DNA of 64,000 nt from Candidatus Tayloriibacteriota bacterium (GCA_052034805.1 JBPOID010000003.1:3502-67501); one strand, 5' to 3'. Positions 51,440 through 64,000 are shown, counted from the first letter of the stretch. The notes: a model not told the origin generated them from the sequence alone. A program made the numbers and translations.

Positions 51440-53060
51440 TCAAATTGAAATAATCCACGAGCAGCTTCCGCTACCCGTGCCTTGTTACGACTTACTCCCT
51501 GTCATTGAGCTTACCTTAGGCCGCGACAAGCGCGGACTTCGGGTACTCCCAACTCCCTTGAGTTGACGGGCGGTGAGTACAAGACTTGAGAACGTATTCA
51601 CCTCGGTATAGCTGACCCGAGATTACTAGCAATTCCGGTTTCATGAGGTCGAGTTGCAGACCTCAATCCAAACTGACGCACCCTTTATAAGGATTTGCTC
51701 CGCCTTTTATCGGCATTGCTTCCCGTTGTAGGTGCGATTGTATCGCGTGTGTAGCCCAGGGTATCAGAGGGACATGCTGACCTGGCGTCATCCTCACCTT
51801 CCTCCCACGACGCAGAGCACAATTATATATTGAAAAATGAATCTCTAAGAAAATTGGTTCGCTTCTCTTGCGGTCGGGAGACCTTTTCGGTCCGCTTTCG
51901 CTCTCGAAAAGGCTCCCTCCCCGGAAGCTCACACAATTTTCTAAATATAATTCCGCGCTATGTCGTGGGCAGTCTCGCCTGACAAATATAACAGGCAACG
52001 AGGGTTGCGTTCGTTACCCCACTGAAGGGAACAACTCAAGCCACGAACTGACGACGGCCATGCATCACCTGCCTAACTGTCTTGCGACGACCAAAGTTTC
52101 TTCTGGTCTTCAGCTAGGTTTCAAACCCTGGTAAGGTTCTTCGTTTGTCATCGAATTAAACCACATGATCCACTGCTTGTGCAAGTCCCCGTCTATTCCT
52201 TTGAGTTTTAACCTTGCGGTCGTACTACCCAGGCGCTTCTCTTAACGCGTTAGCTAAGCCTCTCAGAGGGTCGATACTCCGAAAAGCGAGAGAAGATCGT
52301 TTAGGGCGTGGACTACTGGGGTATCTAATCCCATTCGCGACCCACGCTTTCATGTTTCAGTGTCAGGAGTGCTCCAGTTTCTTGCCTTCGCTTTTGGTGT
52401 TCCCCATAATATCAACGCATTTCACCGCTACACTATGAGTTCCAGAAACCCCTCGCATCCTCTAGTTGTACCGTTTCCTTTGCATGTCCCCGGTTAAGCC
52501 GAAGAATTTAACAAAAGACTAATACAACCACCTACACATCCTTTACGCCCAATGATTCCGGATAACGCTTGAGGCACTCGTATTACCGCTGCTGCTGGCA
52601 CGAGTTTAGCAACCTCTTATTCGCCAAGTACTATCAATAAACTTTCTCCCTGGCAAAAGGTTTTTACGTCCCTAGGGACTTCATCAACCACGCGGCGTCG
52701 CTCCGTCAGGCTTTCGCCCATTGCGGAAGATTCTCGACTGCGGCCACCCGTAGGTGTATGGACCGTCTCTCAGTTCCATCGGTGGGGGTCACCCTCTCAG
52801 GTCCCCTAAGCGTCTTAGCCTTGGTAGGCCATTACCCTACCAACTAGCTGATACTGAACAGGCCCATCCAAAAGCGATAAATCTTTACTCTTTCGAGACC
52901 ATCAAGTATTAACTCATCTTTCGATGAGGTATCCCTGACTCTTGGGTTGGTACCTGCTTATTACTACCTCGTCTGCCACTGTGTATTGCTACACCGTTTG
53001 ACTTGCATGCCTTATCCACGCCGCCAGCGTTCATCCTGAGCTAGGATCAAACTCTTAACT
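51440..53060 (-). rRNA. rrs: 16S ribosomal RNA (about 1.62 kb, with internal expansion and atypical 3' tail; boundaries approximate)
   Basis: Reverse complement contains the 5' end AGAGTTTGATCCTAGCTCAGGATGAACGCTGGCGG (53035..53055), the 806R site GGACTACTGGGGTATCTAATCC, decoding-centre GTACTCACCGCCCGTCA, the 1492 region AAGTCGTAACAAGG, and helix 45 with GGAA loop. No 23S/5S follows. Confidence 0.92.
51806..51968 (-). other. ~160-nt AT-rich expansion/insertion in 16S helix 40 region
   Basis: Conserved flanks ...GACGCCAGGTCAGCATG/GGAGGAAGGTGAGGATGAC and ...GAGACTGCCCACGAC are separated by ~165 nt, against ~12 nt (CCGGTGACAAACC) in typical 16S. The flanks CCACGAC...GTCGTGG can pair to extend the helix. 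Confidence 0.6.
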
Positions 53061-53064
53061 AAAA

Positions 53065-53347: not shown

Positions 53348-54610
53348 TTAACGACTTTCTAGAGAATTTACCTCATTTTCCTTGATTTTCTTTATAATTC
53401 TCCATCTATGTCTGAAATGGCTTATTGTTACATAACTTATAAATGCCAATGCCAATACTATATAAACGATATAATCTATTACAAATCTAATAAGTGAAAA
53501 AGATGATCTTATTTCTATTGATTCATCTCTTATATTGCCCGCCTTATCTATAGCACGCACTATAACCTGTAAATTACTAGTATCAGTTACTGGTACTTGG
53601 AATGGACTTTCTGTTTGTATAAATACTGGGGAAACAGTTAGAGGTTGAGACTTATCTATAATACCAACTTCATAATGATCAATGCCAGAAAGATTATCTG
53701 TGGTAAAGAAAGAAACTAGGGTTCTTTGTGAAAGTATTGTCGCCGCTAATAAATAATTAGCTTCGGGTTTAAAATCTGCAGGAGGAGCAGTATCTATCCT
53801 TATTAGGAAATGTCCTGTACTTCCCCATTCACCCTTCGCTCCACCCTTGTGAGCCTTCACGTGGAAATACCATAGACCATCCGCCAAATCAGTAAATCCT
53901 TTACTCGTATCATTAGAATTTATTACACTATCTGGAATAGTAGAAAATTTATTATCTAAAACATAACTAAAACCATCTACATCTGTATCACGATCCCATG
54001 ATACAACCGGACTATTATTATTATACCAATCATCTTGTACTGGATGTGTTTCTGAGAAAATTCTCACACCATCTGGAGCCTTGGTAATTATTTCATAATT
54101 AGCTCTGCCTAGATCTGCAACAGCTTCAGTACCCATACCATCATTCAAAAGTATTTTTGAATCCGAACGAATACTTACTGTAGCATTACCTGTTTTCAAT
54201 GCCTTAAATGTTATAGTACCAATAAGACCTGATTTTGTAGTTATACCATCAGGTATAACTCCAACATATCTAGCCATACCTCTTTCATTATCATATTTTG
54301 GTGGTTCAACCCATATACCGATAATCGATTTACCTCCAGATGGTTTTATTATTGATAATTTATTTTTATCAAAATTAACTACTATTTCTACACCATTTAT
54401 ACTAGAATTTTTTGTATTTATAATAATAGGAACTTCAAATGTCGAACCTTCAACGAAACTCCCAGAACGAGGAGATAATGATACTTCAACTTTCGGAAGT
54501 AATTTCATAGCATTTACTGTTACTGTTTCTGCATGAAGAGGTAGAGAAAATGACATTGATATAGTCAATGCAATAATTAAAAATAAATATGATTTAATTC
54601 TATTAATCAT
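53348..54610 (-). CDS. Cell-surface protein: signal peptide, cohesin-like beta-sandwich module, second conserved domain, C-terminal TM anchor
   Basis: Signal peptide MINRIKSYLFLIIALTISMSFSLPLHA. Module VEVSLSPRSGSFVEGSTFEVPIIINT...IGTITFKALKTGNATVSIRSDSKILLNDGMGTE has cohesin-like periodicity. C-terminal helix FVIDYIVYIVLALAFISYVTISHF + RHRWR. Paralogous to the next two genes. Confidence 0.55.
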   Translation of the reverse strand: MINRIKSYLFLIIALTISMSFSLPLHAETVTVNAMKLLPKVEVSLSPRSGSFVEGSTFEVPIIINTKNSSINGVEIVVNFDKNKLSIIKPSGGKSIIGIWVEPPKYDNERGMARYVGVIPDGITTKSGLIGTITFKALKTGNATVSIRSDSKILLNDGMGTEAVADLGRANYEIITKAPDGVRIFSETHPVQDDWYNNNSPVVSWDRDTDVDGFSYVLDNKFSTIPDSVINSNDTSKGFTDLADGLWYFHVKAHKGGAKGEWGSTGHFLIRIDTAPPADFKPEANYLLAATILSQRTLVSFFTTDNLSGIDHYEVGIIDKSQPLTVSPVFIQTESPFQVPVTDTSNLQVIVRAIDKAGNIRDESIEIRSSFSLIRFVIDYIVYIVLALAFISYVTISHFRHRWRIIKKIKENEVNSLESR

Positions 54611-55764
54611 TATAATTCAATGTCTCTAATCTCTCTACCTATAGTTCTTTCAGCAGAATTTATATCTTTCTTTAATAAGGATTTATCTTCTATATCTTCT
54701 CGGAGAATATCAAAGGATTTATGTACTATATCTTCTACTTTATGCATCTCTCTTTTATATTTTCCATTACTATTTGTCTTTCTTTTTTCATCTTTATCTT
54801 CTGTATATATATGTATTATTAAATAAACAATAATAAGTATTAGTATTAACAATATAATCCATATTTGCCATGGAATATCAGAGAAAAAATTACCTATATT
54901 TATAATTATTTTATTTGATTCATTACTATGAGTACCATCACTCTTTATCATAATAGCTGTTACTGTATATTCACCAGACTTTAGAGAATTAGGTACTGGT
55001 AAATTGAAATTTCCATTATCTTCAGCTATATCAGTTATAAATATCTTAGTACCTTTTTCAGAGATAAAAGTTATTAATACTTGTGCTTTAGAATAATCAG
55101 ATATTCCTATAATAGATGGCTGATTATACTTTATTCCATATACTATCTCTGGCGACTTTAGAGTTAAAGGTTTCTCTATCACAGGTGCTGGTACTACTTC
55201 TGGAGTATTTTCTTTTATCTCTTTAATTGGTTCCGGCTTTACACTGGCTTCTTTTATAGAAAACATTGCCCCTGATAGATTGCCAGTTATGTCTGTGCCT
55301 TCTCCATCATTTGCAAGTATTTGACCAGATTGAAAAGAAATATTAGCTGAACCGATCTTTAATGGTCTTATAACTATAGTAAGAATATTACCGATTGAAC
55401 CACCTTTATATCCACCGAGTGCAACTCCTTCGAAACGGACTGTACCGTTTGATCTAGAAAGAGTTGGTTCTGTTACCCAAAAATTCAAAGCGGAACCAGA
55501 TTTTGAAACAGATTCAATAGAAAATAATGATGTTGGAATATTTATAACAGAAGATACAGCATTAAAAGCTATATCACTAGTAACATTTACCTTTAATATT
55601 ATAGAACTACCAACTTCATAACTACCAGAAGATGGACTGATGGATAGTGTCGCAGCAAAAACTGTATTAGAAAATAATGGTACAAAAAAGAATATTAAAG
55701 ATAACAATACTAGCGGATAAATATTGATTTTATTTTCTTTTTTGAAAAAATCACAAATGTACAT
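54610..55764 (-). CDS. Cell-surface cohesin-like module protein (paralog 2) with C-terminal TM anchor and ~70-aa charged cytoplasmic tail
   Basis: Signal peptide, LSISPSSGSYEVGSSIILKVNVTSD...ILTIVIRPLKIGSANISFQSGQILANDGEGTD, TM helix IWIILLILILIIVYLIIHIY. Confidence 0.55.
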   Translation of the reverse strand: MYICDFFKKENKINIYPLVLLSLIFFFVPLFSNTVFAATLSISPSSGSYEVGSSIILKVNVTSDIAFNAVSSVINIPTSLFSIESVSKSGSALNFWVTEPTLSRSNGTVRFEGVALGGYKGGSIGNILTIVIRPLKIGSANISFQSGQILANDGEGTDITGNLSGAMFSIKEASVKPEPIKEIKENTPEVVPAPVIEKPLTLKSPEIVYGIKYNQPSIIGISDYSKAQVLITFISEKGTKIFITDIAEDNGNFNLPVPNSLKSGEYTVTAIMIKSDGTHSNESNKIIINIGNFFSDIPWQIWIILLILILIIVYLIIHIYTEDKDEKRKTNSNGKYKREMHKVEDIVHKSFDILREDIEDKSLLKKDINSAERTIGREIRDIEL

Positions 55765-56600
55765 ATTACTAAAATTATAGCAAGAATTATGTAATGTTCA
55801 TACCATGGAATATTCTTCGGATTAACCATAACTACTCTTATATTGTTTGATTTATCAACAGCTTTTACATAAATCTTGGTTCTTAATTCTTGATCCTTCA
55901 AAAGATATGGGCTTGTAGCCTCTATACAATCAGATTCAATACCCTCACAAATCTCATAATGATCAATACCAGAAATCTTATCTTGAGTATTAAATACTAT
56001 AAAATATTTATCATCAAAAATATTAGGGTCTTTATTTATTTCTGGAACAAATGTTTCCGGCAAATCTTTATCTAAAATATTATATTCACTAGGTATATAA
56101 TCCTTATTAGTTTTATTAAAAATATTTAATTGTAAATTCTTTATTTTGGCTTTTATTTCTGTACCCTTTCCATCATTACGGAATAATTGTGATTTGATTA
56201 CCTTTAGAGATGTATTACCAGACTTCTTTATCTCAAAAATAATCCTTATAATATTTCCCTTATCTCCATTATATCCACCAGGAGTTATACCAGAAAGATA
56301 TATTTCACCATCTTTTAATATATTTGGTTTATCTATCCAAATATTAACTATAGAATCGCCTGTGTATATATTTTTAAAATCAAGTATATCGCTAGGATAA
56401 GAAATGGTACTTGCTATAGTGTTTATAGATTCATTTTGTGTATTCAAATATAAATCTACAGATATAATATCTCCAACTCTTAAAATATCATTAGAAGGAT
56501 TAACAATACTTAATTCAGCAGCATAAACAGTATTACTAAATAGTAATACTGTAATTAAAAATAAAATTGTAATAATTATTTTCTTCATTATCCTGTCCAA
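55710..56600 (-). CDS. Cell-surface cohesin-like module protein (paralog 3) with C-terminal TM anchor
   Basis: Signal peptide MKKIIITILFLITVLLFSNTVYA. LSIVNPSNDILRVGDIISVDLYLNT...IIRIIFEIKKSGNTSLKVIKSQLFRNDGKGTE. Shares SGIDHYE...VKAVDKSNNIR with paralog 1. TM HYIILAIILVICTFVIF. Overlaps the downstream paralog by 55 nt in a different frame. Confidence 0.55.
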   Translation of the reverse strand: MDRIMKKIIITILFLITVLLFSNTVYAAELSIVNPSNDILRVGDIISVDLYLNTQNESINTIASTISYPSDILDFKNIYTGDSIVNIWIDKPNILKDGEIYLSGITPGGYNGDKGNIIRIIFEIKKSGNTSLKVIKSQLFRNDGKGTEIKAKIKNLQLNIFNKTNKDYIPSEYNILDKDLPETFVPEINKDPNIFDDKYFIVFNTQDKISGIDHYEICEGIESDCIEATSPYLLKDQELRTKIYVKAVDKSNNIRVVMVNPKNIPWYEHYIILAIILVICTFVIFSKKKIKSIFIR

Positions 56601-57955
56601 TTAAATGCCATAATACTGAAATCTATAAGATCTATTTTTGCATCACCATTCAATCTTTCTTTTTCTATAAGCTTAAATGATTCACTGAGTATATGTTTAT
56701 ACCAAAAAGCAGCAATAGAGAAGTCTACAAGATTAACTCTGCCATCTTTATTCAAATCTCCTCTCAAAATTTTATTTGCCAAAGAGACTGCGGCAACATT
56801 TTTATTACCGACAATAAAACCTAAAGAATTACTGAAAGGACTTATTTCACCATTGATTGCTGCTTTTAATTTTGTAGAATGTTGACCCATTTCGAGAGGA
56901 GTAGTATCAAAATTATATAAATATATACCATTCTTATCAGAATTAGTTTTAGAGAAAATAGTTTCATTAGAATTAACTTGAATAGTTAAATCTCCATTGC
57001 CAACAGATTGTCCAAATATGGCTATATTATCACCTCTCTTAACTTCACTTTTATCTAAAGAAATCGTAGGAGTTATGAATATACCACCAACACTAGTTAT
57101 AACACCTCTTGTTACAAATATCTGAAATGTAAAAGGACTAGATTTCACATTTCTATTATCTTCACCGTAAACACCAAAAATATAACTACCTGGTGAAAGA
57201 TTGGTTATTCTTGCTGTAAAATTACTATCGGGACCAGCAATTGTATTAAGTATTAATTGTCCATCTTTTAGAAATCCTACCTTACTTAAAGGATAAGCTC
57301 TCCCAGAAAGGACAACTCCTGTATCTCCAGAATCAGTATCACCACCCCCACCTCCTCCTCCGCCCCCGCCACCACCTCCCCCTCCTCCGCCACCACCTCC
57401 ATTATTATTGTTTGAAGATACTGGTGTAGAAGATATTTGACTTGAAGAAGCTATAGCGTTACCAAAAATATCTTTAACAACTATAACGAAATAATAAGTA
57501 GTATTATTAGTCAAACCAGAAATACTAGAAGATGTGACATTACCGAGAGAAGTATAAGTATATGGACCTCCTGACACAGTCGATCTAGCTATATTATAGC
57601 CAGATGGAGTCCAGCCTAAAAATCCAGATGAATTTGTCCATGATAAACTAATAGAAGAATCGCCTGGTGTAGCAGAAACCACAGGTGAAGATACGAATGG
57701 ATAGAATAATGAACCCGCATTCAATTTATAATCTGTTGCACTACTAGTACCAATACTCATTTGCGATAGACTACTCCATAATTGAAAACTCGTAGAAGTA
57801 GCGTAATTAGCGGAAAACATAACTGGATCTACAACTTGATAAGATCCTGATGTGTATTCATCAGCATTAGATACAAAGACAATAGAAAGGAATAGGAATA
57901 ACGCCAGTGTTAAAGCTCTTAGATATCTAATGCCTTTATATACATCTTTTGTCAT
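56588..57955 (-). CDS. Secreted dockerin-containing protein: signal peptide, Fn3-like domain, 22-Gly linker, Ig-like domain, C-terminal type-I dockerin
   Basis: Signal peptide ...LFLFLSIVFVSNA. Fn3-like SATPGDSSISLSWTNSSGFLGWTPSGYNIARS...TTYYFVIVVKD, G22 run. C-terminal GDLNKDGRVNLVDFSIAAFWYKHIL...LNGDAKIDLIDFSIMAFNW has two Ca-binding DxNxDGxVNxxD-type dockerin repeats. Confidence 0.7.
   Translation of the reverse strand: MTKDVYKGIRYLRALTLALFLFLSIVFVSNADEYTSGSYQVVDPVMFSANYATSTSFQLWSSLSQMSIGTSSATDYKLNAGSLFYPFVSSPVVSATPGDSSISLSWTNSSGFLGWTPSGYNIARSTVSGGPYTYTSLGNVTSSSISGLTNNTTYYFVIVVKDIFGNAIASSSQISSTPVSSNNNNGGGGGGGGGGGGGGGGGGGGDTDSGDTGVVLSGRAYPLSKVGFLKDGQLILNTIAGPDSNFTARITNLSPGSYIFGVYGEDNRNVKSSPFTFQIFVTRGVITSVGGIFITPTISLDKSEVKRGDNIAIFGQSVGNGDLTIQVNSNETIFSKTNSDKNGIYLYNFDTTPLEMGQHSTKLKAAINGEISPFSNSLGFIVGNKNVAAVSLANKILRGDLNKDGRVNLVDFSIAAFWYKHILSESFKLIEKERLNGDAKIDLIDFSIMAFNWTG
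57341..57410 (-). repeat. 70-nt near-100% G+C (CCN)n tract encoding a 22-residue poly-glycine linker
   Basis: ACCACCCCCACCTCCTCCTCCGCCCCCGCCACCACCTCCCCCTCCTCCGCCACCACCTCC in a ~28% GC genome; mixed GGN codons. Confidence 0.8.
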
Positions 57956-57979: not shown

Positions 57980-58363
57980 TTATTGGCCGATCTTTAGAGT
58001 TGCAACTTCAACTATTATATTAGACTTATCATCATATATAAGTGCTGTCTTGGATACAGGATAGACTATAAGATAATCACCTACCTTTGCTTTAACGAAA
58101 AATGGATTATTAACAAAAGGTTTAGTATCAGAAATCATAGCCACTACTGGTTTCTCATTTGTTGGTAAAGCTATTAATTTACCAACTTTATCTATAAGCA
58201 TAGTTACTTTTGCTTCATTTTCTTTATCTTGATTCTGTTTTAGAGAAACGGTTTTACTGTAGAAATAAAATAAAGATACTGATGCAATAATTATAAGTAT
58301 GATTATCACTAGAATTGGTTTAGTGAGAAACTTTGTTTTTGTATTGTTTGTATTAGGTTCCAT
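57980..58363 (-). CDS. Small N-terminally membrane-anchored protein, paralog A of a tandem triplet
   Basis: 127 aa. TM ILVIIILIIIASVSLFYF, then conserved LIALPTNEKPVVAMISDTKPFVNNPFFVKAKVGDYLIVYP...EVATL. Confidence 0.55.
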   Translation of the reverse strand: MEPNTNNTKTKFLTKPILVIIILIIIASVSLFYFYSKTVSLKQNQDKENEAKVTMLIDKVGKLIALPTNEKPVVAMISDTKPFVNNPFFVKAKVGDYLIVYPVSKTALIYDDKSNIIVEVATLKIGQ

Positions 58364-58373
58364 ATTTTTTTAA

Positions 58374-58751
58374 TTATTTTGAAGAATTTTTATTTGTTGT
58401 TTCCAAATTTATCTTGGCTACTTCCAGAATCTTATTTGCTACTGGATCATAAAGATATATTTTGCCAGTATTTTTATAAAAGACTACATTATCACCATTT
58501 TTTGCTTTTGCGAAAAATGGGTCCTTATTCAACTTTTCTATATCATTTACAACCATTATAACAGGTGTTTCATCTTCTGGTAGAATTATCAATTTACCTA
58601 ATCTAGAAACCAAATCCTCAGTTTGTTGTTCTACTGAACTCTGTGGATTATCTTTAATGTTTCCTGCTTTCTTGTAAAAGTTAAACGCAAAGCCACTTAT
58701 GATAATAAACACAACTAAAAGTAAAAAGAAAATTTTATTTCTGTAATTCAT
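58374..58751 (-). CDS. Small N-terminally membrane-anchored protein, paralog B
   Basis: 125 aa; LIILPEDETPVIMVVNDIEKLNKDPFFAKAKNGDNVVFY...EVAKI aligns with paralogs A and C. Confidence 0.55.
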   Translation of the reverse strand: MNYRNKIFFLLLVVFIIISGFAFNFYKKAGNIKDNPQSSVEQQTEDLVSRLGKLIILPEDETPVIMVVNDIEKLNKDPFFAKAKNGDNVVFYKNTGKIYLYDPVANKILEVAKINLETTNKNSSK

Positions 58752-58816
58752 AATGACAATTATAAACTATTGATAGTTATTAAAGCAAATCTATTATCCA
58801 CAAAATAGCCAGTAAA

Positions 58817-59221
58817 TTAGCGATTTGTTGTGGAATTTATATCTGTTGTTTTATTTGCAGAAACAGAAGATATTTCTATAATTTTCTTTATGGAAGGCCT
58901 CCATAATATAGCCTTTTGAGATGTTTGATATATAAGAACCTTATCCCCCACTTGTGCATTAGCAAAGAATTTCTGATCTTTTAATTTTGATGGGTCTGAT
59001 ACTGTCGCCAAAGTTGGTGTTTCATCTTTTGGTAATACTATAAATACACCTATATCTTTAACTATTTGATTTGTTTCTCTAGAAATAGCTTCACCAGGAT
59101 TCTCTAGATTACGTATTTTATTTATAAAAATAATATTAGATACTATAAGACCAATAATTATTATAATAAGACTTATAATAAAAACTTTTATTCTTGATGG
59201 TAATAAATTAAATGTTTTCAT
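58817..59221 (-). CDS. Small N-terminally membrane-anchored protein, paralog C
   Basis: 134 aa; VFIVLPKDETPTLATVSDPSKLKDQKFFANAQVGDKVLIYQ...EISSV. Confidence 0.55.
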   Translation of the reverse strand: MKTFNLLPSRIKVFIISLIIIIIGLIVSNIIFINKIRNLENPGEAISRETNQIVKDIGVFIVLPKDETPTLATVSDPSKLKDQKFFANAQVGDKVLIYQTSQKAILWRPSIKKIIEISSVSANKTTDINSTTNR

Positions 59222-59245: not shown

Positions 59246-62200
59246 CTATTGATTAGAGCTTGTATCAGAAGTTGCTGGTACGGTAACTACCGCTTCTGGT
59301 ACTGGAACAGAAGCAGATGTATCAGGAGTTATAGATACTGGAGCTACTTCTGTATTTGTCTGTACTGAATTATTTGTATTAGATATTGTATTGGTATTTG
59401 TATTAACATTATTATCTGTATTTATTACAGTATTTGTCTCTGTCTGATTTTCAGTATTAGGTACTGATGTATTTACTTCTGTATTATTAGAAGAACCAGA
59501 AGATTGACTTGTATTAGGCGTTATAACTGGAGTTGAAGTTGGAGTAGATGTTGAAATAGTTGTAGTTATAGTATTTAATATTGGAGAAACTATTTCTGTA
59601 TTTCCAATATAAGGAGTTGTTGTTGATATTGTTGGTGTTGTTATTATTGGATTTACTATAACTGTACTTGTTGCTGTTGAAGTAGCATTTAATGTATTTG
59701 CTTCTGTATTTACCATATCAGAATCTTTTGAAGTAAATAACTTTGCATTCTTCACAGCGAATGCTGTCCAACTAAATTCTATATCAACAGGTGCTGGTCT
59801 ATTTAGAATAATTGTGAATCCTTTTACACTTCTCTTTGTTATTAGAGATCTTATATCCTTATCAAATATTATATCTTCAATAGATTCTGTAGAAGTAGCT
59901 TCGTCTACACTAATCGAAGCATTAACGATAGGAGTATCTATATATTCTCTATCAAAGACAATATCGACTTTCTTTGCACCCTTCTTTATAAGAGCATTGC
60001 CTGCAGTATCGACGGTAAAGTATGGTCTTCCAAAGAAGATAGTATCAGAAAGTATAGATACCATAGTTGAAGTGGCACCTATAGAATCAACTAACAATCC
60101 TCCAGAGAATAGAGCTTGTTTGCTTATATTTATAGAATCAAATGCTGCAATATTTGCTGTTATAGAACCCTTGAATAAAGCATTTCCAATATTATCAAAT
60201 GACAACAATACAGTCTTTGTAGATGTAGCTATTGTAGGCAATGTAGATGTAGCTTCTGTAGAAGTTGATGAGTCTGTATTTATATCTACAACTGAAGCTA
60301 ATATATTCTTGCTCAAAGAGAATATACCATCATTTCCTAATTCCATAACTATAGAACCATTCTTTATAATAGATGTTTCAAGTGTATTTGTCTTTATGTT
60401 CTTAGCAGATATAGTTATACCTTCTACTGATTCTGATTTTAATATTCTAGTTATAACATTTGAACTTAGAACATCTGATACTGCTGTAATTTTATCTGCA
60501 AATACTTCAGATCTAGCAGAAGCCATGGTATCTCTCTGTTTCTTTACATTTGAAAGATAAGATAAGAGATCTGCTTGATGTGAATCATATATTCCAGAAG
60601 CAAATCCTGCTAATTCATTTGTAGAAGTAGCTATGTCTTGAGGATTAATATCTGAATTAATATTTGAATTAGTATTTGAATCTAGAAGAGATTTCAATTG
60701 ATCACCATTCAAAGCTAGAGAATCATCAGCGGAATCTCCTAGATAATCAACTAGATTTACGAACATTGTTATAGTTGTACATTTTCTATTTGGTATTGCA
60801 ATTCCACCCGCTGGACAATCGACTAGATTTGCAGTGTCAATACCAGATAATGCTTTTCCTATAACATGACCAGCTAAAGTTGCCTTCATAGCATAACCAG
60901 GAATACTTGATGGAGTAAGTTTATCACCTTGTCTTATCATTCCATTTTCTGTTGTAACCTTTACAGGTACACGACCTATAAGAGCTATTGGATAAGAATT
61001 CTCTGTATATGCACCAGCTACGAATCCAGGATCAGTTGAAACAACTCCCATTACATCTCCTTGATATTGATATGTCGTTTTCTTTACACCATGATTATTC
61101 TGTGGATCTATAGCTACAACATCTCCGAAATCTAATTCTTCTTGTGATGTATATCTTTCTGCAAGATCGGCACCAGAAGTATTGAATGTTCCTCCAGTCT
61201 GAGCAAATATATCTCCAGCAGAACTTACGCGGAACATAGATAATCCATCTGATTGCAAATCAATAAGATCTTTATCTTTTGTAACCTTGTATTCATACAA
61301 TACTGGAGTTATAACAGGTCTCTGAGGATAAGCCATAGCAGAACCACCATTGTTATTCCATGTATCAGTATATATACCTCCATAAGATGGGAATGATCTT
61401 CGGAAATTAAAGTTTATAGAAAGCCAAGTATCATTTGGTCCTGGATTTATAAGTCCACCCGATTTTGCAATTTCTCTTGTTGTAGATGTTGACAATGCAG
61501 CTTGAGTAGGAGCGGTTCTAACCTCTGCAGATATACCTCCTAGAGCAGTCATACCGACATTTGACTTCCATACCAAGGTAGAATTTGAATCAAGTTTTGT
61601 ACCCACAGGAGAAAGGTCAAATTGTTCAGATTTATATATACCACTAGGTACCCAACCAGCATCATATGTTTGAACAAGACTAGTTGCAGAAGTTGTAGCA
61701 CCTCCCAATATAATTACGAATTTTCCATCAGATCTTTGGAATGCAACTCCTCCAGAGTTAGCAGTAGCAGAGTTTGCAAGAGTAGGTCCAGCTACAAACG
61801 ATCCTATAGTTGATTGTGGTCCCAAAGCAGTAAGAGCACCAGCCTGTTCTATATAAATATTTGTAGTGTTCTGACCAGCTAGAGCGGCAGTACCAGCACC
61901 TTCTACTATGAGCCATGAACCATCTGGACGAGGTAATGCATAACCACCCAATCCTACTCCATTACTTGATGTAAATGCAGGACCAGTTGTTGTTATTTGG
62001 TTTTGAATAGGATTGTAAACACCAGTACCAGTTGAACCTGCACAAGAAGCAGCTGTAGCACCTCCACGAACTATAATCCATTGTCCATCAGATCTTTGGA
62101 ATGCAAATGCTCCTGGTCCAGTACCTCCAGTGTTTGTAGGAGCTCCAGTAAATGTGAAATCCATAGTATAAGGATCGAAGTTATTCGTAATAGTGTTAGG

Positions 62201-64000
62201 AGTAGGACAAGTTTTACCTCGAGGATATGTAGGCATACCAGGAATAAATAGATATGTACCATTTGGACGAGGCACCCATAGAGATCCAGGACCAACAGCA
62301 GCAAATGTTGCAGCAGTTGTCAGAGGACGAGGTCCAACTGTCATAGTATTATTCACAGGATCATATATAGAAGAATTACTTGTAAGACCTCCATGCATTA
62401 TAAGTACACGTCCATTAGGAAGTGGTATAGCAGAAGCACCGATACCAGCACCAGTTGTACCAGATACACTGGCTAAGTTCGGACCATCTATAAATGTATT
62501 TGCTACTGGATCATATATATTTGTTGTAGAAGTCGCAGCGAAACTACCTTCACCAAGAATAATTAAGAATTTGCCATCTGGCCTCTTGAATGCAAATCCT
62601 CCTGTACCTATAGGTGCTGTAGGAGAAACTGTATTTAGAGTTGTTGTACCAGTTGCTTCATCATATATTTGAGAGTTTGGAATAGATGAACTTGCAGATA
62701 TAATTACGAATTTTCCATCAGGCCTCTTCATAACTATAGTAGTTGAAGCTGTAGGAACATAAAGTCTTGGGGCATTCTGGAATGAGCCATTGTAGAAATT
62801 AGGATTTGTAGCATTTATAGTAGAGCCATATCCAACACCAGCAGCCAAAGCCAATGCATTTGCACGATTCTTATCATTTGTAATATTTATAGCAGCAGGA
62901 CCAGAATCTGGAGCAGTTGAAGAAGATACGGCATTTCCAAAATCAAATTGAGTTCTATGAAGTGATGTACTATTATCTACAACAATTGATGATATAGTTG
63001 GATCAGCATTCACACGACGATATCTGGTTATACCTCCCTTTCTTAATCCCCATTCTTGATCAAGGAATCTCGGTAATTCACGTTGGAATGTAAATTTGAA
63101 TTGAATAAGATTGTCAGCTGTTGTAGTTGCACGTATAAGATCTCCACTATTTCCTATTGGTCTATATTCTGCAGAAGAACAGGAAGATGGACTTGTAGCT
63201 GTTCTTACATAAACTTTAATAGTTCCTTCACTATTTGTAGTCCAATTCAAAGTAGAATCAGGAGAAAGATTTGTACTACTTATACATTCACTTTCATAAT
63301 ATGCATCTTGTTGATTGGCACGATTAGTACCTGTAATAAAGTTCATATCATATATATCCATGGTGTTCTTGAATCCACCATTTATAACAGCATATCTACC
63401 ATCAGGTAACATAAATGCAGTTAGACCATAACCACCAGTATTAGATAGAGTCAAACTAGTATTAGAGAATTGTGGTGCAAGATAATTACTTGTACCAGGT
63501 ATACCAGATCCAGCATCTATAACATTTATCATATTTCCTACTGTGGTACTTGCTGAAAGTAATAGATAATTACCATCTTGTCTCCATATAGATTGAGCCC
63601 CATCAGAAAGTATAGATGTAGGTCCAACACCTAGATCACCAGAGAATCCTCCTGTTGAACCAGTTGTTGTTCCGACAGGTTTGTAAATAAATGATTGAGA
63701 AGCAGGACCTGGTAATGTAAGGAATGTACCATCTTGTCTTCTTATAGAGAATGCTCCATTAGCTATTCTTACTGGCGTAGTAGGTCCTGTAAGCATAGTA
63801 CCTGTAATAATGTTTGAGGCAACTGTGTTTCCAGAATAAGGATTATATACATATGTTGTATTAGTACCTCCTTGATAAATAAGGAAAGTACCATCATCTC
63901 TTTGTAATGCATGTGTACCAGCACCCCAAGTACCAGTTATACCTATACTTACATTTGTATATCCTGCATTTGTTGCAGCAGAAGGGTTATATATACCCCA
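59246..64000 (-). CDS. Giant (>1580 aa) Kelch-type beta-propeller repeat surface protein with Thr/Ser/Asn-rich C-terminal tail; 5' end beyond window edge
   Basis: At least 12 repeats of ~45-50 aa with YDP/YNP...N and R.DG..L(I/V)..GG hallmarks (e.g. FAFQRSDGQWIIVRGG, NIYDPVANTF, SSIYDPVNNTM). The frame stays open upstream of the first Met (63796) to position 64000 and continues in Kelch-like sequence (LQRDDGTFLIYQGG). Last ~170 aa are TSTPTSTPVITPNTSQSS...NTNTNTISNTNN low complexity. Confidence 0.75.
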   Translation of the reverse strand, partial: WGIYNPSAATNAGYTNVSIGITGTWGAGTHALQRDDGTFLIYQGGTNTTYVYNPYSGNTVASNIITGTMLTGPTTPVRIANGAFSIRRQDGTFLTLPGPASQSFIYKPVGTTTGSTGGFSGDLGVGPTSILSDGAQSIWRQDGNYLLLSASTTVGNMINVIDAGSGIPGTSNYLAPQFSNTSLTLSNTGGYGLTAFMLPDGRYAVINGGFKNTMDIYDMNFITGTNRANQQDAYYESECISSTNLSPDSTLNWTTNSEGTIKVYVRTATSPSSCSSAEYRPIGNSGDLIRATTTADNLIQFKFTFQRELPRFLDQEWGLRKGGITRYRRVNADPTISSIVVDNSTSLHRTQFDFGNAVSSSTAPDSGPAAINITNDKNRANALALAAGVGYGSTINATNPNFYNGSFQNAPRLYVPTASTTIVMKRPDGKFVIISASSSIPNSQIYDEATGTTTLNTVSPTAPIGTGGFAFKRPDGKFLIILGEGSFAATSTTNIYDPVANTFIDGPNLASVSGTTGAGIGASAIPLPNGRVLIMHGGLTSNSSIYDPVNNTMTVGPRPLTTAATFAAVGPGSLWVPRPNGTYLFIPGMPTYPRGKTCPTPNTITNNFDPYTMDFTFTGAPTNTGGTGPGAFAFQRSDGQWIIVRGGATAASCAGSTGTGVYNPIQNQITTTGPAFTSSNGVGLGGYALPRPDGSWLIVEGAGTAALAGQNTTNIYIEQAGALTALGPQSTIGSFVAGPTLANSATANSGGVAFQRSDGKFVIILGGATTSATSLVQTYDAGWVPSGIYKSEQFDLSPVGTKLDSNSTLVWKSNVGMTALGGISAEVRTAPTQAALSTSTTREIAKSGGLINPGPNDTWLSINFNFRRSFPSYGGIYTDTWNNNGGSAMAYPQRPVITPVLYEYKVTKDKDLIDLQSDGLSMFRVSSAGDIFAQTGGTFNTSGADLAERYTSQEELDFGDVVAIDPQNNHGVKKTTYQYQGDVMGVVSTDPGFVAGAYTENSYPIALIGRVPVKVTTENGMIRQGDKLTPSSIPGYAMKATLAGHVIGKALSGIDTANLVDCPAGGIAIPNRKCTTITMFVNLVDYLGDSADDSLALNGDQLKSLLDSNTNSNINSDINPQDIATSTNELAGFASGIYDSHQADLLSYLSNVKKQRDTMASARSEVFADKITAVSDVLSSNVITRILKSESVEGITISAKNIKTNTLETSIIKNGSIVMELGNDGIFSLSKNILASVVDINTDSSTSTEATSTLPTIATSTKTVLLSFDNIGNALFKGSITANIAAFDSINISKQALFSGGLLVDSIGATSTMVSILSDTIFFGRPYFTVDTAGNALIKKGAKKVDIVFDREYIDTPIVNASISVDEATSTESIEDIIFDKDIRSLITKRSVKGFTIILNRPAPVDIEFSWTAFAVKNAKLFTSKDSDMVNTEANTLNATSTATSTVIVNPIITTPTISTTTPYIGNTEIVSPILNTITTTISTSTPTSTPVITPNTSQSSGSSNNTEVNTSVPNTENQTETNTVINTDNNVNTNTNTISNTNNSVQTNTEVAPVSITPDTSASVPVPEAVVTVPATSDTSSNQ

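Follow-up and report, generated by a model that had tools for sequence, protein, structure and literature searches.

A phage gp12-type chaperone domain within a giant, probably secreted propeller protein of a Patescibacteria genome

Introduction

How the ultra-small bacteria of the Patescibacteria, or Candidate Phyla Radiation (CPR), attach to their hosts is an open question, and their largest genes are nearly all annotated as "hypothetical". A giant gene lies at the end of a 64,000-nucleotide stretch of DNA from a Candidatus Tayloriibacteriota bacterium (GCA_052034805.1 JBPOID010000003.1:3502-67501; this whole stretch is referred to as the window). The locus raises the question of what kind of protein this gene encodes and how such a protein would work. 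An earlier note on the window, made from the sequence alone, had described the product as a multi-Kelch protein with an unrecognised central domain and a low-complexity tail, and had considered it a candidate host-glycan adhesin.

The analysis presented here points to a secreted glycan-binding surface fibre of Patescibacteria (Minisyncoccota/CPR), which would be trimerised and cut by a domain of the kind found in gp12 of phage phi29. As a whole, this reading is given a probability of about 0.55. The identities of the individual domains are held with high confidence; trimerisation, cleavage, and adhesion, each considered individually, stand near even odds.

A gp12-type chaperone domain in the central block

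The central domain comprises ~125-145 residues, with six invariant and 19 nearly invariant columns among 57 diverse homologues. Its consensus is GGADLAExY..LExGDVVxID...V.KS...Y...V.GVVST.PG...G....P.AL.GRVPVKV..ENG.I..GD.LT.SS.PG.AMKA...G.VIGKAL. In the earlier note, this block had been singled out and had been said to match nothing that could be named. It is indeed real and strongly conserved, and it does have a match. A profile made of the 57 diverse copies (profile A1) found, as its best match in the PDB, the pre-neck appendage protein gp12 of phage phi29 (E 0.006), the similarity being located in the first ~80 residues. The DLAE motif of the family is aligned on DFAE, which stands at residue 1 of the crystallised C-terminal gp12 fragment 3gqh. 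The 772-residue gp12 chain 3suc has DFAQ in place of DFAE and is presumably the uncleaved E695Q construct. Cleavage of gp12 between S691 and D692, and its block by E695Q, was reportedly found by Xiang et al. 2009, which is consistent with the sequences of these two PDB chains. In the AlphaFold2 model of amino acids (aa) 905-1440, the central domain is predicted at a pLDDT (predicted local distance difference test) of ~90 and has the fold of the C-terminal gp12 fragment. Domain profiles and fold prediction, both of which had been recommended for this region, have thus led to gp12.

The corresponding Pfam family PF11962 (Peptidase_G2, intramolecular chaperone autoproteolytic cleavage domain) gives weak matches in 16 of the 57 copies and none in the query; one relative, P0098, exceeds the curated cut-off (28 versus 25 bits, at profile positions 36-101 of 228). 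Taken together, the central block is a phi29 gp12-type intramolecular chaperone domain. In the phage, this domain of gp12 acts as an intramolecular chaperone and is not found in the mature virion (PMC9863714). From the alignment, the scissile bond of the giant protein is predicted to be A944/D945, and D945 and E948 would form the catalytic pair.

Conservation of the motif is in line with this prediction. All 57 homologues have the Asp, and conservation of at least 90% is seen for both the Ala and the Glu. When the profile was run against a library of 1.84 billion proteins, 32,556 cluster representatives were retrieved at E<=1e-3 and 26,172 at 1e-10, most of them giant CPR proteins. The 150 best-scoring representatives (P0153-P0302), ranked by a summed score that favours multi-copy proteins, reach up to 5,766 residues, and 278 of their 299 N-terminally complete domain copies (93%) have kept D-x-A-E. 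In the literature, no paper was found that ties giant CPR proteins to a gp12-type domain, and the name Peptidase_G2 was not met with there.

Two Kelch-type propellers, each with a beta-sandwich

Upstream of the central domain, the signature R/K-x-D/N-G-x-[FYW]-x-[IVL][IVL] recurs 45-65 residues apart and falls into two sets of seven. The earlier estimate of at least 12 Kelch-like blades in two or more propellers was essentially right; spacing, profile, and fold indicate 14 blades in the whole protein, arranged as two 7-bladed propellers. The window covers four complete blades and part of a fifth of propeller 1, whose first blades lie outside, and all seven blades of propeller 2.

Whether the repeats score as Kelch depends on what is searched. 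Scanned alone, the 1,584-residue product encoded in the window has no match in Pfam, NCBIfam, or PHROGs, in Pfam not even at E<=1, and phmmer against the PDB sequences yielded chance-level matches only, the best one (E 0.2) in the low-complexity tail. The family profile, the relatives, and the fold, on the other hand, all support Kelch. Profile A2, an alignment of 20 homologous propeller-sandwich units, matched Kelch-domain and galactose-oxidase-family chains of the PDB at E 5.7e-8 to 5e-3, and the relatives P0144 (48.8 bits) and P0139 (34.3 bits) are above the Pfam Kelch_6 cut-off of 25.3. With a single-sequence scan, which gives no Kelch match even at E<=1, the refutation proposed in the earlier note, namely repeats without a Kelch score, would therefore have led to a wrong dismissal of the Kelch assignment.

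The AlphaFold2 model of aa 390-905 (pLDDT 85, predicted template modelling score (pTM) 0.84) consists of 28 strands, i.e., 7 x 4, followed by a beta-sandwich. With this model, the top Foldseek matches were galactose oxidase, glyoxal oxidase, GlxA, and fungal alcohol oxidases (E 1e-12), in alignments of ~545 columns that take in both the propeller and the sandwich; plain Kelch domains came second (E ~1e-9). Judged from the signatures and the model, the repeats are Kelch-type blades that are predicted to form two 7-bladed propellers, each accompanied by a beta-sandwich.

With such matches at the top of the list, the protein could be thought of as a galactose oxidase or another copper radical oxidase (AA5) acting on glycans of the host or of the bacterium itself. 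In the propeller-sandwich unit, however, there are only a single His and two Cys, and across the 20 units neither residue occupies a conserved column. The copper site, for which two His, two Tyr, and one Cys in cross-link with Tyr are needed, can therefore not be present. An oxidase is the least probable of all explanations considered and is largely excluded. The composition of the units rather suggests that they are binding modules. The same Kelch-plus-sandwich unit is found in two Paceibacteria proteins (P0151/P0152), where it is fused to a prepilin N-terminal methylation motif.

The C-terminal extension

The giant protein and its Parcubacteria-type relatives continue for ~495 residues beyond the gp12-type domain. 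Downstream of this domain, the AlphaFold2 model of aa 905-1440 has helices at ~aa 1091-1158, followed by a stalk (aa 1161-1328) to which no fold could be assigned from the low-confidence model. The domain behind the stalk, aa 1329-1419, was aligned by Foldseek with SLL-2 and Helix pomatia/aspersa agglutinin (prob 1.0, target-normalised TM-score (TMt) 0.56-0.57), and also with C-terminal domains of tail spikes. In Pfam, the H-type lectin family PF09458 gives weak matches in 15 of 29 relatives (best E 4.7e-4), with P0045 above the cut-off (29.2 versus 24 bits), and no match in the query. As modelled, the domain thus matches the H-type lectin fold. H-type lectins are trimeric, which would fit a trimeric fibre. 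Carbohydrate binding of the giant protein would be better argued from this predicted domain than from the propellers.

The C-terminal Thr/Ser/Asn-rich stretch that had been noticed earlier is present at aa 1430-1584, with 26% Thr, 15% Asn, and 14% Ser (55% combined). At its end, neither a membrane segment nor a sorting or covalent anchor motif is recognisable. The C-termini of relatives are Pro/Thr/Glu/Ser-rich tails.

Extent of the gene

The minus-strand frame ends with the stop codon at 59246-59248 and contains no stop upstream to the edge of the window at 64000, which amounts to 1,584 codons. The ATG at 63796, listed as the start of the open reading frame, is internal to the open frame and was ruled out as start codon, since the frame runs on upstream. 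As had been stated in the earlier note, the N-terminus lies outside the window. The extension of the contig proposed there was achieved in part: Logan contig L001 (SRR34217545), 100% identical with the window across 10,972 nt, adds 459 codons and stops within the gene, with no start codon reached. The protein must accordingly exceed 2,043 residues, and its N-terminus lies beyond position 64000. Close relatives in Patescibacteria genome bins have frames of 2,400-2,650 codons, with the 5' end open in the fetched DNA.

In the part upstream of the window (L001 2-1000), repeated GNVGIGTTSPYAKLSV-type motifs occur in Thr/Ser/Ala/Gly-rich sequence; they are also found in the loci L013, L014, and L016. 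This N-terminal extension has no Pfam match. The GNVGIGTTSPYAKLSV-type motif resembles motifs of phage and Bacteroidota tail-fibre-like proteins. The window is AT-rich (~27% G+C). The giant gene (window 60001-64000) has 36-38% G+C versus 25-31% across most of the window, which may be due to its Gly/Ala/Thr-rich composition or to a different origin.

A cellular protein family

The closest protein relatives are all from Patescibacteria/CPR bins (Minisyncoccia, Parcubacteria, Kaiserbacteria, Moraniibacteriota, Peribacteria). Homologues from Peribacteria/Peregrinibacteria are complete, with 1,500-1,566 residues, 41-48% identity across ~1,290 residues, and Sec signal peptides. Their central domain is located at the extreme C-terminus (...MFVNLSDWPGP, followed by the stop), that is, in the classical position of a chaperone domain, and the gene of one Peribacteria homologue is surrounded by ordinary cellular genes. 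Sec signal peptides were found in the complete homologues P0123, P0124, P0128, P0130, P0131, and P0135, and also in L034 and L035. The last-named of the P series, P0135 (L085 1-7490), has a complete signal-peptide N-terminus, and its gene is oriented divergently to type IV pilus genes (T2SSE, T2SSF) and to five others without annotation; along with the prepilin fusions P0151/P0152, this arrangement hints that in some lineages the protein may be displayed on pili.

Among species-representative genomes, at least 577 loci contain the central domain, and 80 of them were fetched by means of this domain. The passenger upstream of the domain is variable, Kelch units being confined to about the closest half of the loci (L005-L043). 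What follows the domain is more constant. In 55 of the 80 loci, the gene is followed downstream, in the same orientation, by one for a homologue of a small membrane protein; 46 loci have both this small-protein gene and the lectin-bearing extension, 14 have neither, nine have the small protein only, and eight have the lectin only. One relative carries an SH3_3 wall-binding-type domain after the lectin domain.

The gp12-type domain, which is typical of phage fibres, would also be expected if the gene coded for a tail fibre or tail spike of a prophage or phage, that is, for a virion protein that happens to be in the contig. Tail-spike-like C-terminal matches (Pam1, LKA1, AP22, pyocin fibres) and fibre motifs of the GNVGIGTTSP type point in the same direction, as do distant relatives of the central domain, some of which contain collagen repeats, a YadA head, or T7 tail-fibre segments, next to others with a papain-like protease or Ig-like domains. 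Several observations argue against a virion protein: the query has no PHROGs match; its 64-kb surroundings are cellular, with 16S ribosomal RNA (rRNA), four transfer RNAs (tRNAs), GroEL, RNase J, two-component systems, pyruvate kinase, and amidase, and no phage genes were seen near the giant gene within the window; the genes downstream encode membrane and cohesin/dockerin-type proteins; and the complete homologues with Sec signal peptides lie among housekeeping genes. The signal peptides of the relatives and the housekeeping-gene context thus speak for a cellular fibre and not for a phage part. A virion protein is very improbable and, like the oxidase, largely excluded.

Proposed assembly and self-cleavage

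The order of domains is a fibre-like N-terminal part, two propeller-sandwich units, the gp12-type domain, helices and stalk, the lectin-like domain, and a mucin-like tail. Following export by the Sec pathway, the chaperone domain would set three chains in register. It would then cut its own chain at A944/D945 by means of D945/E948, whereby the N-terminal propeller fibre would be separated, or at least nicked, from the C-terminal lectin-bearing piece. The role of the fibre would be attachment via glycans, either those of a host cell or those of the bacterium's own wall, and the neighbouring small membrane proteins would probably help in its assembly or anchoring.

A number of points weigh against this scenario. 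With 495 residues after the central domain and the propellers before it, the query does not fit a simple chaperone that is cleaved and discarded. Two or three copies of the domain are present in nearly all of the 150 best-scoring relatives (144 with two, five with three, in the ranking that favours such proteins); these proteins may be self-processing polyproteins. The fold of the central domain is shared with phage capsid decoration proteins, which are non-proteolytic, and the passenger consists of globular propellers rather than of a trimeric beta-helix. Processing of phi29 gp12 involves adenosine triphosphate (ATP), which is unavailable outside the cell. The query itself has no match in Pfam, NCBIfam, PHROGs, or the PDB sequences, and all domain assignments are drawn from profiles, relatives, or predicted folds. 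Finally, the N-terminus has not been recovered: exact-match DNA searches of genome contigs and metagenome contigs past position 64000 gave 0 matches, and the fetched loci of close GTDB relatives are 5'-open, several of them at contig ends, so that the long Parcubacteria-type form is still represented without its N-terminus.

Several of these points would be accommodated if the gp12-like domain did not cut at all but acted as a beta-tulip trimerisation or clamp module in an intact chain, with the conserved C-terminal cassette of lectin-like domain and Thr/Ser-rich tail, along with the small membrane protein, as a cell-proximal anchor on the bacterium's own wall glycopolymer and the variable N-terminal heads, Kelch propellers in this case, pointing outward. 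The internal position of the domain, often in two or three copies, its relationship to capsid decoration proteins, and the absence of extracellular ATP all suit such a module, and so does the conservation of the C-terminal cassette and its partner gene next to a variable passenger, as well as the SH3_3 domain after the lectin in one relative. The arrangement would be similar to that of Gram-positive surface proteins, which are anchored via their C-terminal end. It would account poorly for D-x-A-E, however: the motif is invariant or nearly so, also in internal and duplicated copies, which is hard to explain without catalysis, and it is aligned exactly on the cleavage point of gp12. Moreover, neither a membrane segment nor a motif for covalent anchoring can be recognised at the C-terminus. 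An uncut clamp is the main rival but is considered less probable than the self-cut fibre, which is preferred.

Neighbouring genes

Directly downstream of the giant gene, three small paralogous membrane proteins are encoded (Table 1). They are 27-31% identical with each other, and each is composed of an N-terminal transmembrane helix and a conserved ~90-residue domain with the invariant pattern L-P..E.P ... F-F ... G-D. Beyond transmembrane-segment noise, no Pfam, NCBIfam, or PDB match was obtained for them. The four surface-protein genes that follow recur as a set in ~20 of the 80 related loci. In the 455-aa protein, an fn3-like region and a poly-Gly stretch are present and dockerin is matched weakly; the 384-aa protein has weak Ig-like matches, and the 420-aa protein a cohesin domain (E 4.9e-8). 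By these matches, the 455-aa and 420-aa proteins may form a cohesin-dockerin pair of this CPR bacterium. The 16S rRNA gene is longer than its model, which suggests insertions, and is not adjoined by a 23S gene; pyruvate kinase is next to it instead.

It had been speculated that the tail of the giant protein might be O-glycosylated by an adjacent large glycosylation island. A corresponding gene cluster with GT11, GT2, at least five GT1 glycosyltransferases, a GT47/exostosin-like protein, and a GDP-mannose-dehydratase-like epimerase does exist and looks like a polysaccharide cluster. It is not adjacent, being located at ~7-31 kb and at least 27 kb away from the giant gene, with ~20 housekeeping genes, tRNAs, and the 16S gene in between; GroEL, RNase J, two-component systems, and pyruvate kinase are encoded in this intervening part. 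Glycosylation of the tail is still plausible, as is a role of the protein as an adhesin.

Table 1. Position of the giant gene, its domains, and its neighbours in the window
Feature	Position	Strand	Basis or remark
Giant gene, in-window part	59246..64000	minus	1,584 codons + stop; open frame, extended by contig L001
Propeller 1, last four blades and part of fifth (aa 1-231)	63308..64000	minus	blade signatures; unit-1 segments ~30% identical to unit 2
Beta-sandwich 1, after propeller 1 (aa 232-350)	62951..63307	minus	alignment A2 with sandwich 2
Propeller 2, predicted 7-bladed Kelch-type beta-propeller (aa 395-785)	61646..62818	minus	AlphaFold2 model, Foldseek, profile versus PDB
Beta-sandwich 2 (aa 786-905), placed like galactose oxidase domain 3	61286..61645	minus	Foldseek alignment
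gp12-like (Peptidase_G2-related) intramolecular chaperone/autoproteolysis domain, beta-tulip fold (aa 944-1089)	60734..61171	minus	
D945-L-A-E948, predicted catalytic and cleavage motif	61157..61168	minus	translation SGADLAE; predicted cut A944/D945
Helical segment, possible coiled coil (aa 1090-1160)	60521..60733	minus	AlphaFold2 helices at model residues 187-205, 233-254
Ser/Thr/Ile-rich beta stalk (aa 1161-1328)	60017..60520	minus	AlphaFold2 low confidence; variable length among relatives
H-type-lectin-like domain, alpha/beta (aa 1329-1419)	59744..60016	minus	confidently modelled (AlphaFold2)
Thr/Ser/Asn-rich low-complexity tail (aa 1430-1584)	59249..59713	minus	composition
Three paralogous small bitopic membrane proteins, directly downstream	57980..59221	minus	sequences; recurrence in related loci
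Small membrane protein, 134 aa	58817-59221	minus	
Small membrane protein, 125 aa	58374-58751	minus	
Small membrane protein, 127 aa	57980-58363	minus	
Downstream surface-protein genes (455 aa, 296 aa, 384 aa, 420 aa)	53348..57955	minus	
16S rRNA gene	51443-53062	minus	1,620 nt versus 1,533-position model
Glycosyltransferase/sugar-nucleotide cluster	7209-31449	both	

Implications

Each domain of the giant protein is of a known kind. What is unusual is their context in a secreted CPR giant, the internal cassette of chaperone and lectin, the conserved partner gene, and the size of the family. A design recurs in these giant genes in which a module of phage tail spikes is inserted into a secreted cellular protein, with carbohydrate-type binding domains on either side and a paired gene for a small membrane protein. 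More speculatively, the cassette of gp12-like domain, helices, lectin-like domain, tail, and small membrane protein might represent an undescribed, Patescibacteria-wide fibre system borrowed from phage tail spikes, by which trimeric fibres with interchangeable N-terminal heads would be assembled, cut, and mounted. If this were true, such fibres would be a main means by which these episymbionts recognise and hold host cells, and the proteins with two or three domain copies would be self-processing polyproteins that give rise to several fibres.

The giant protein is thus a good candidate for the attachment of CPR bacteria to other cells, and its propeller and lectin-like domains are concrete candidates for the recognition of host glycans. 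The family of the central domain is nearly invisible to single-sequence scans with Pfam and NCBIfam; with a curated model, tens of thousands of proteins would receive an annotation.

Comparison with known systems

The closest known system is gp12 of phi29, the Peptidase_G2 type (PF11962; 3gqh, 3suc). Common to both are the profile similarity in the first ~80 residues, D-x-A-E at the N-terminal edge of the domain, in register with residue 1 of the gp12 fragment produced by cleavage, and, in the Peribacteria homologues, the position of the domain at the extreme C-terminus. In contrast to gp12, the query does not match the PF11962 model, it is cellular, with complete relatives that possess signal peptides, and its domain is internal, with 495 residues to follow; the passenger consists of Kelch propellers, whereas that of gp12 is a beta-helix. 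Cleavage of the query protein, moreover, is a prediction from its sequence. The second half of the query family (ALxGRVPVKVxxENGxIxxGDxLTxSSxPGxAMKA) is closer to capsid decoration, or cement, proteins, of which the beta-tulip decorators of TW1 (gp56), HFTV1, Sf11 (gp40), XM1 (gp53), and BB1 are named here for comparison. Those decoration proteins differ in being small, stand-alone binders of the capsid that are not known to be proteolytic.

With galactose oxidase (AA5) and GlxA of Streptomyces, the query has in common the succession of a 7-bladed Kelch propeller and a beta-sandwich; its unit differs in being devoid of copper ligands, in occurring twice in tandem, and in forming part of a fibre. 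The modelled fold of aa 1329-1419 corresponds to that of the H-type lectins (Helix pomatia agglutinin, SLL-2, the C-terminal domain of discoidin; PF09458), although the query does not match the Pfam model and some of the best-aligned structures are C-terminal domains of tail spikes.

A precedent for a chaperone domain of phage origin in the middle of a cellular protein is MYRF, where such a domain trimerises and cuts the protein and thereby frees its N-terminal part (PMC3742440, PMC8326128). MYRF is eukaryotic and membrane-bound, and its domain is of the endosialidase type (Peptidase_S74), an unrelated family with a serine-lysine dyad, for which the Pfam scan gave no match in the query. In principle, however, by analogy with MYRF, the giant protein would work in the same way, trimerising and cutting itself by a domain in the middle of its chain.

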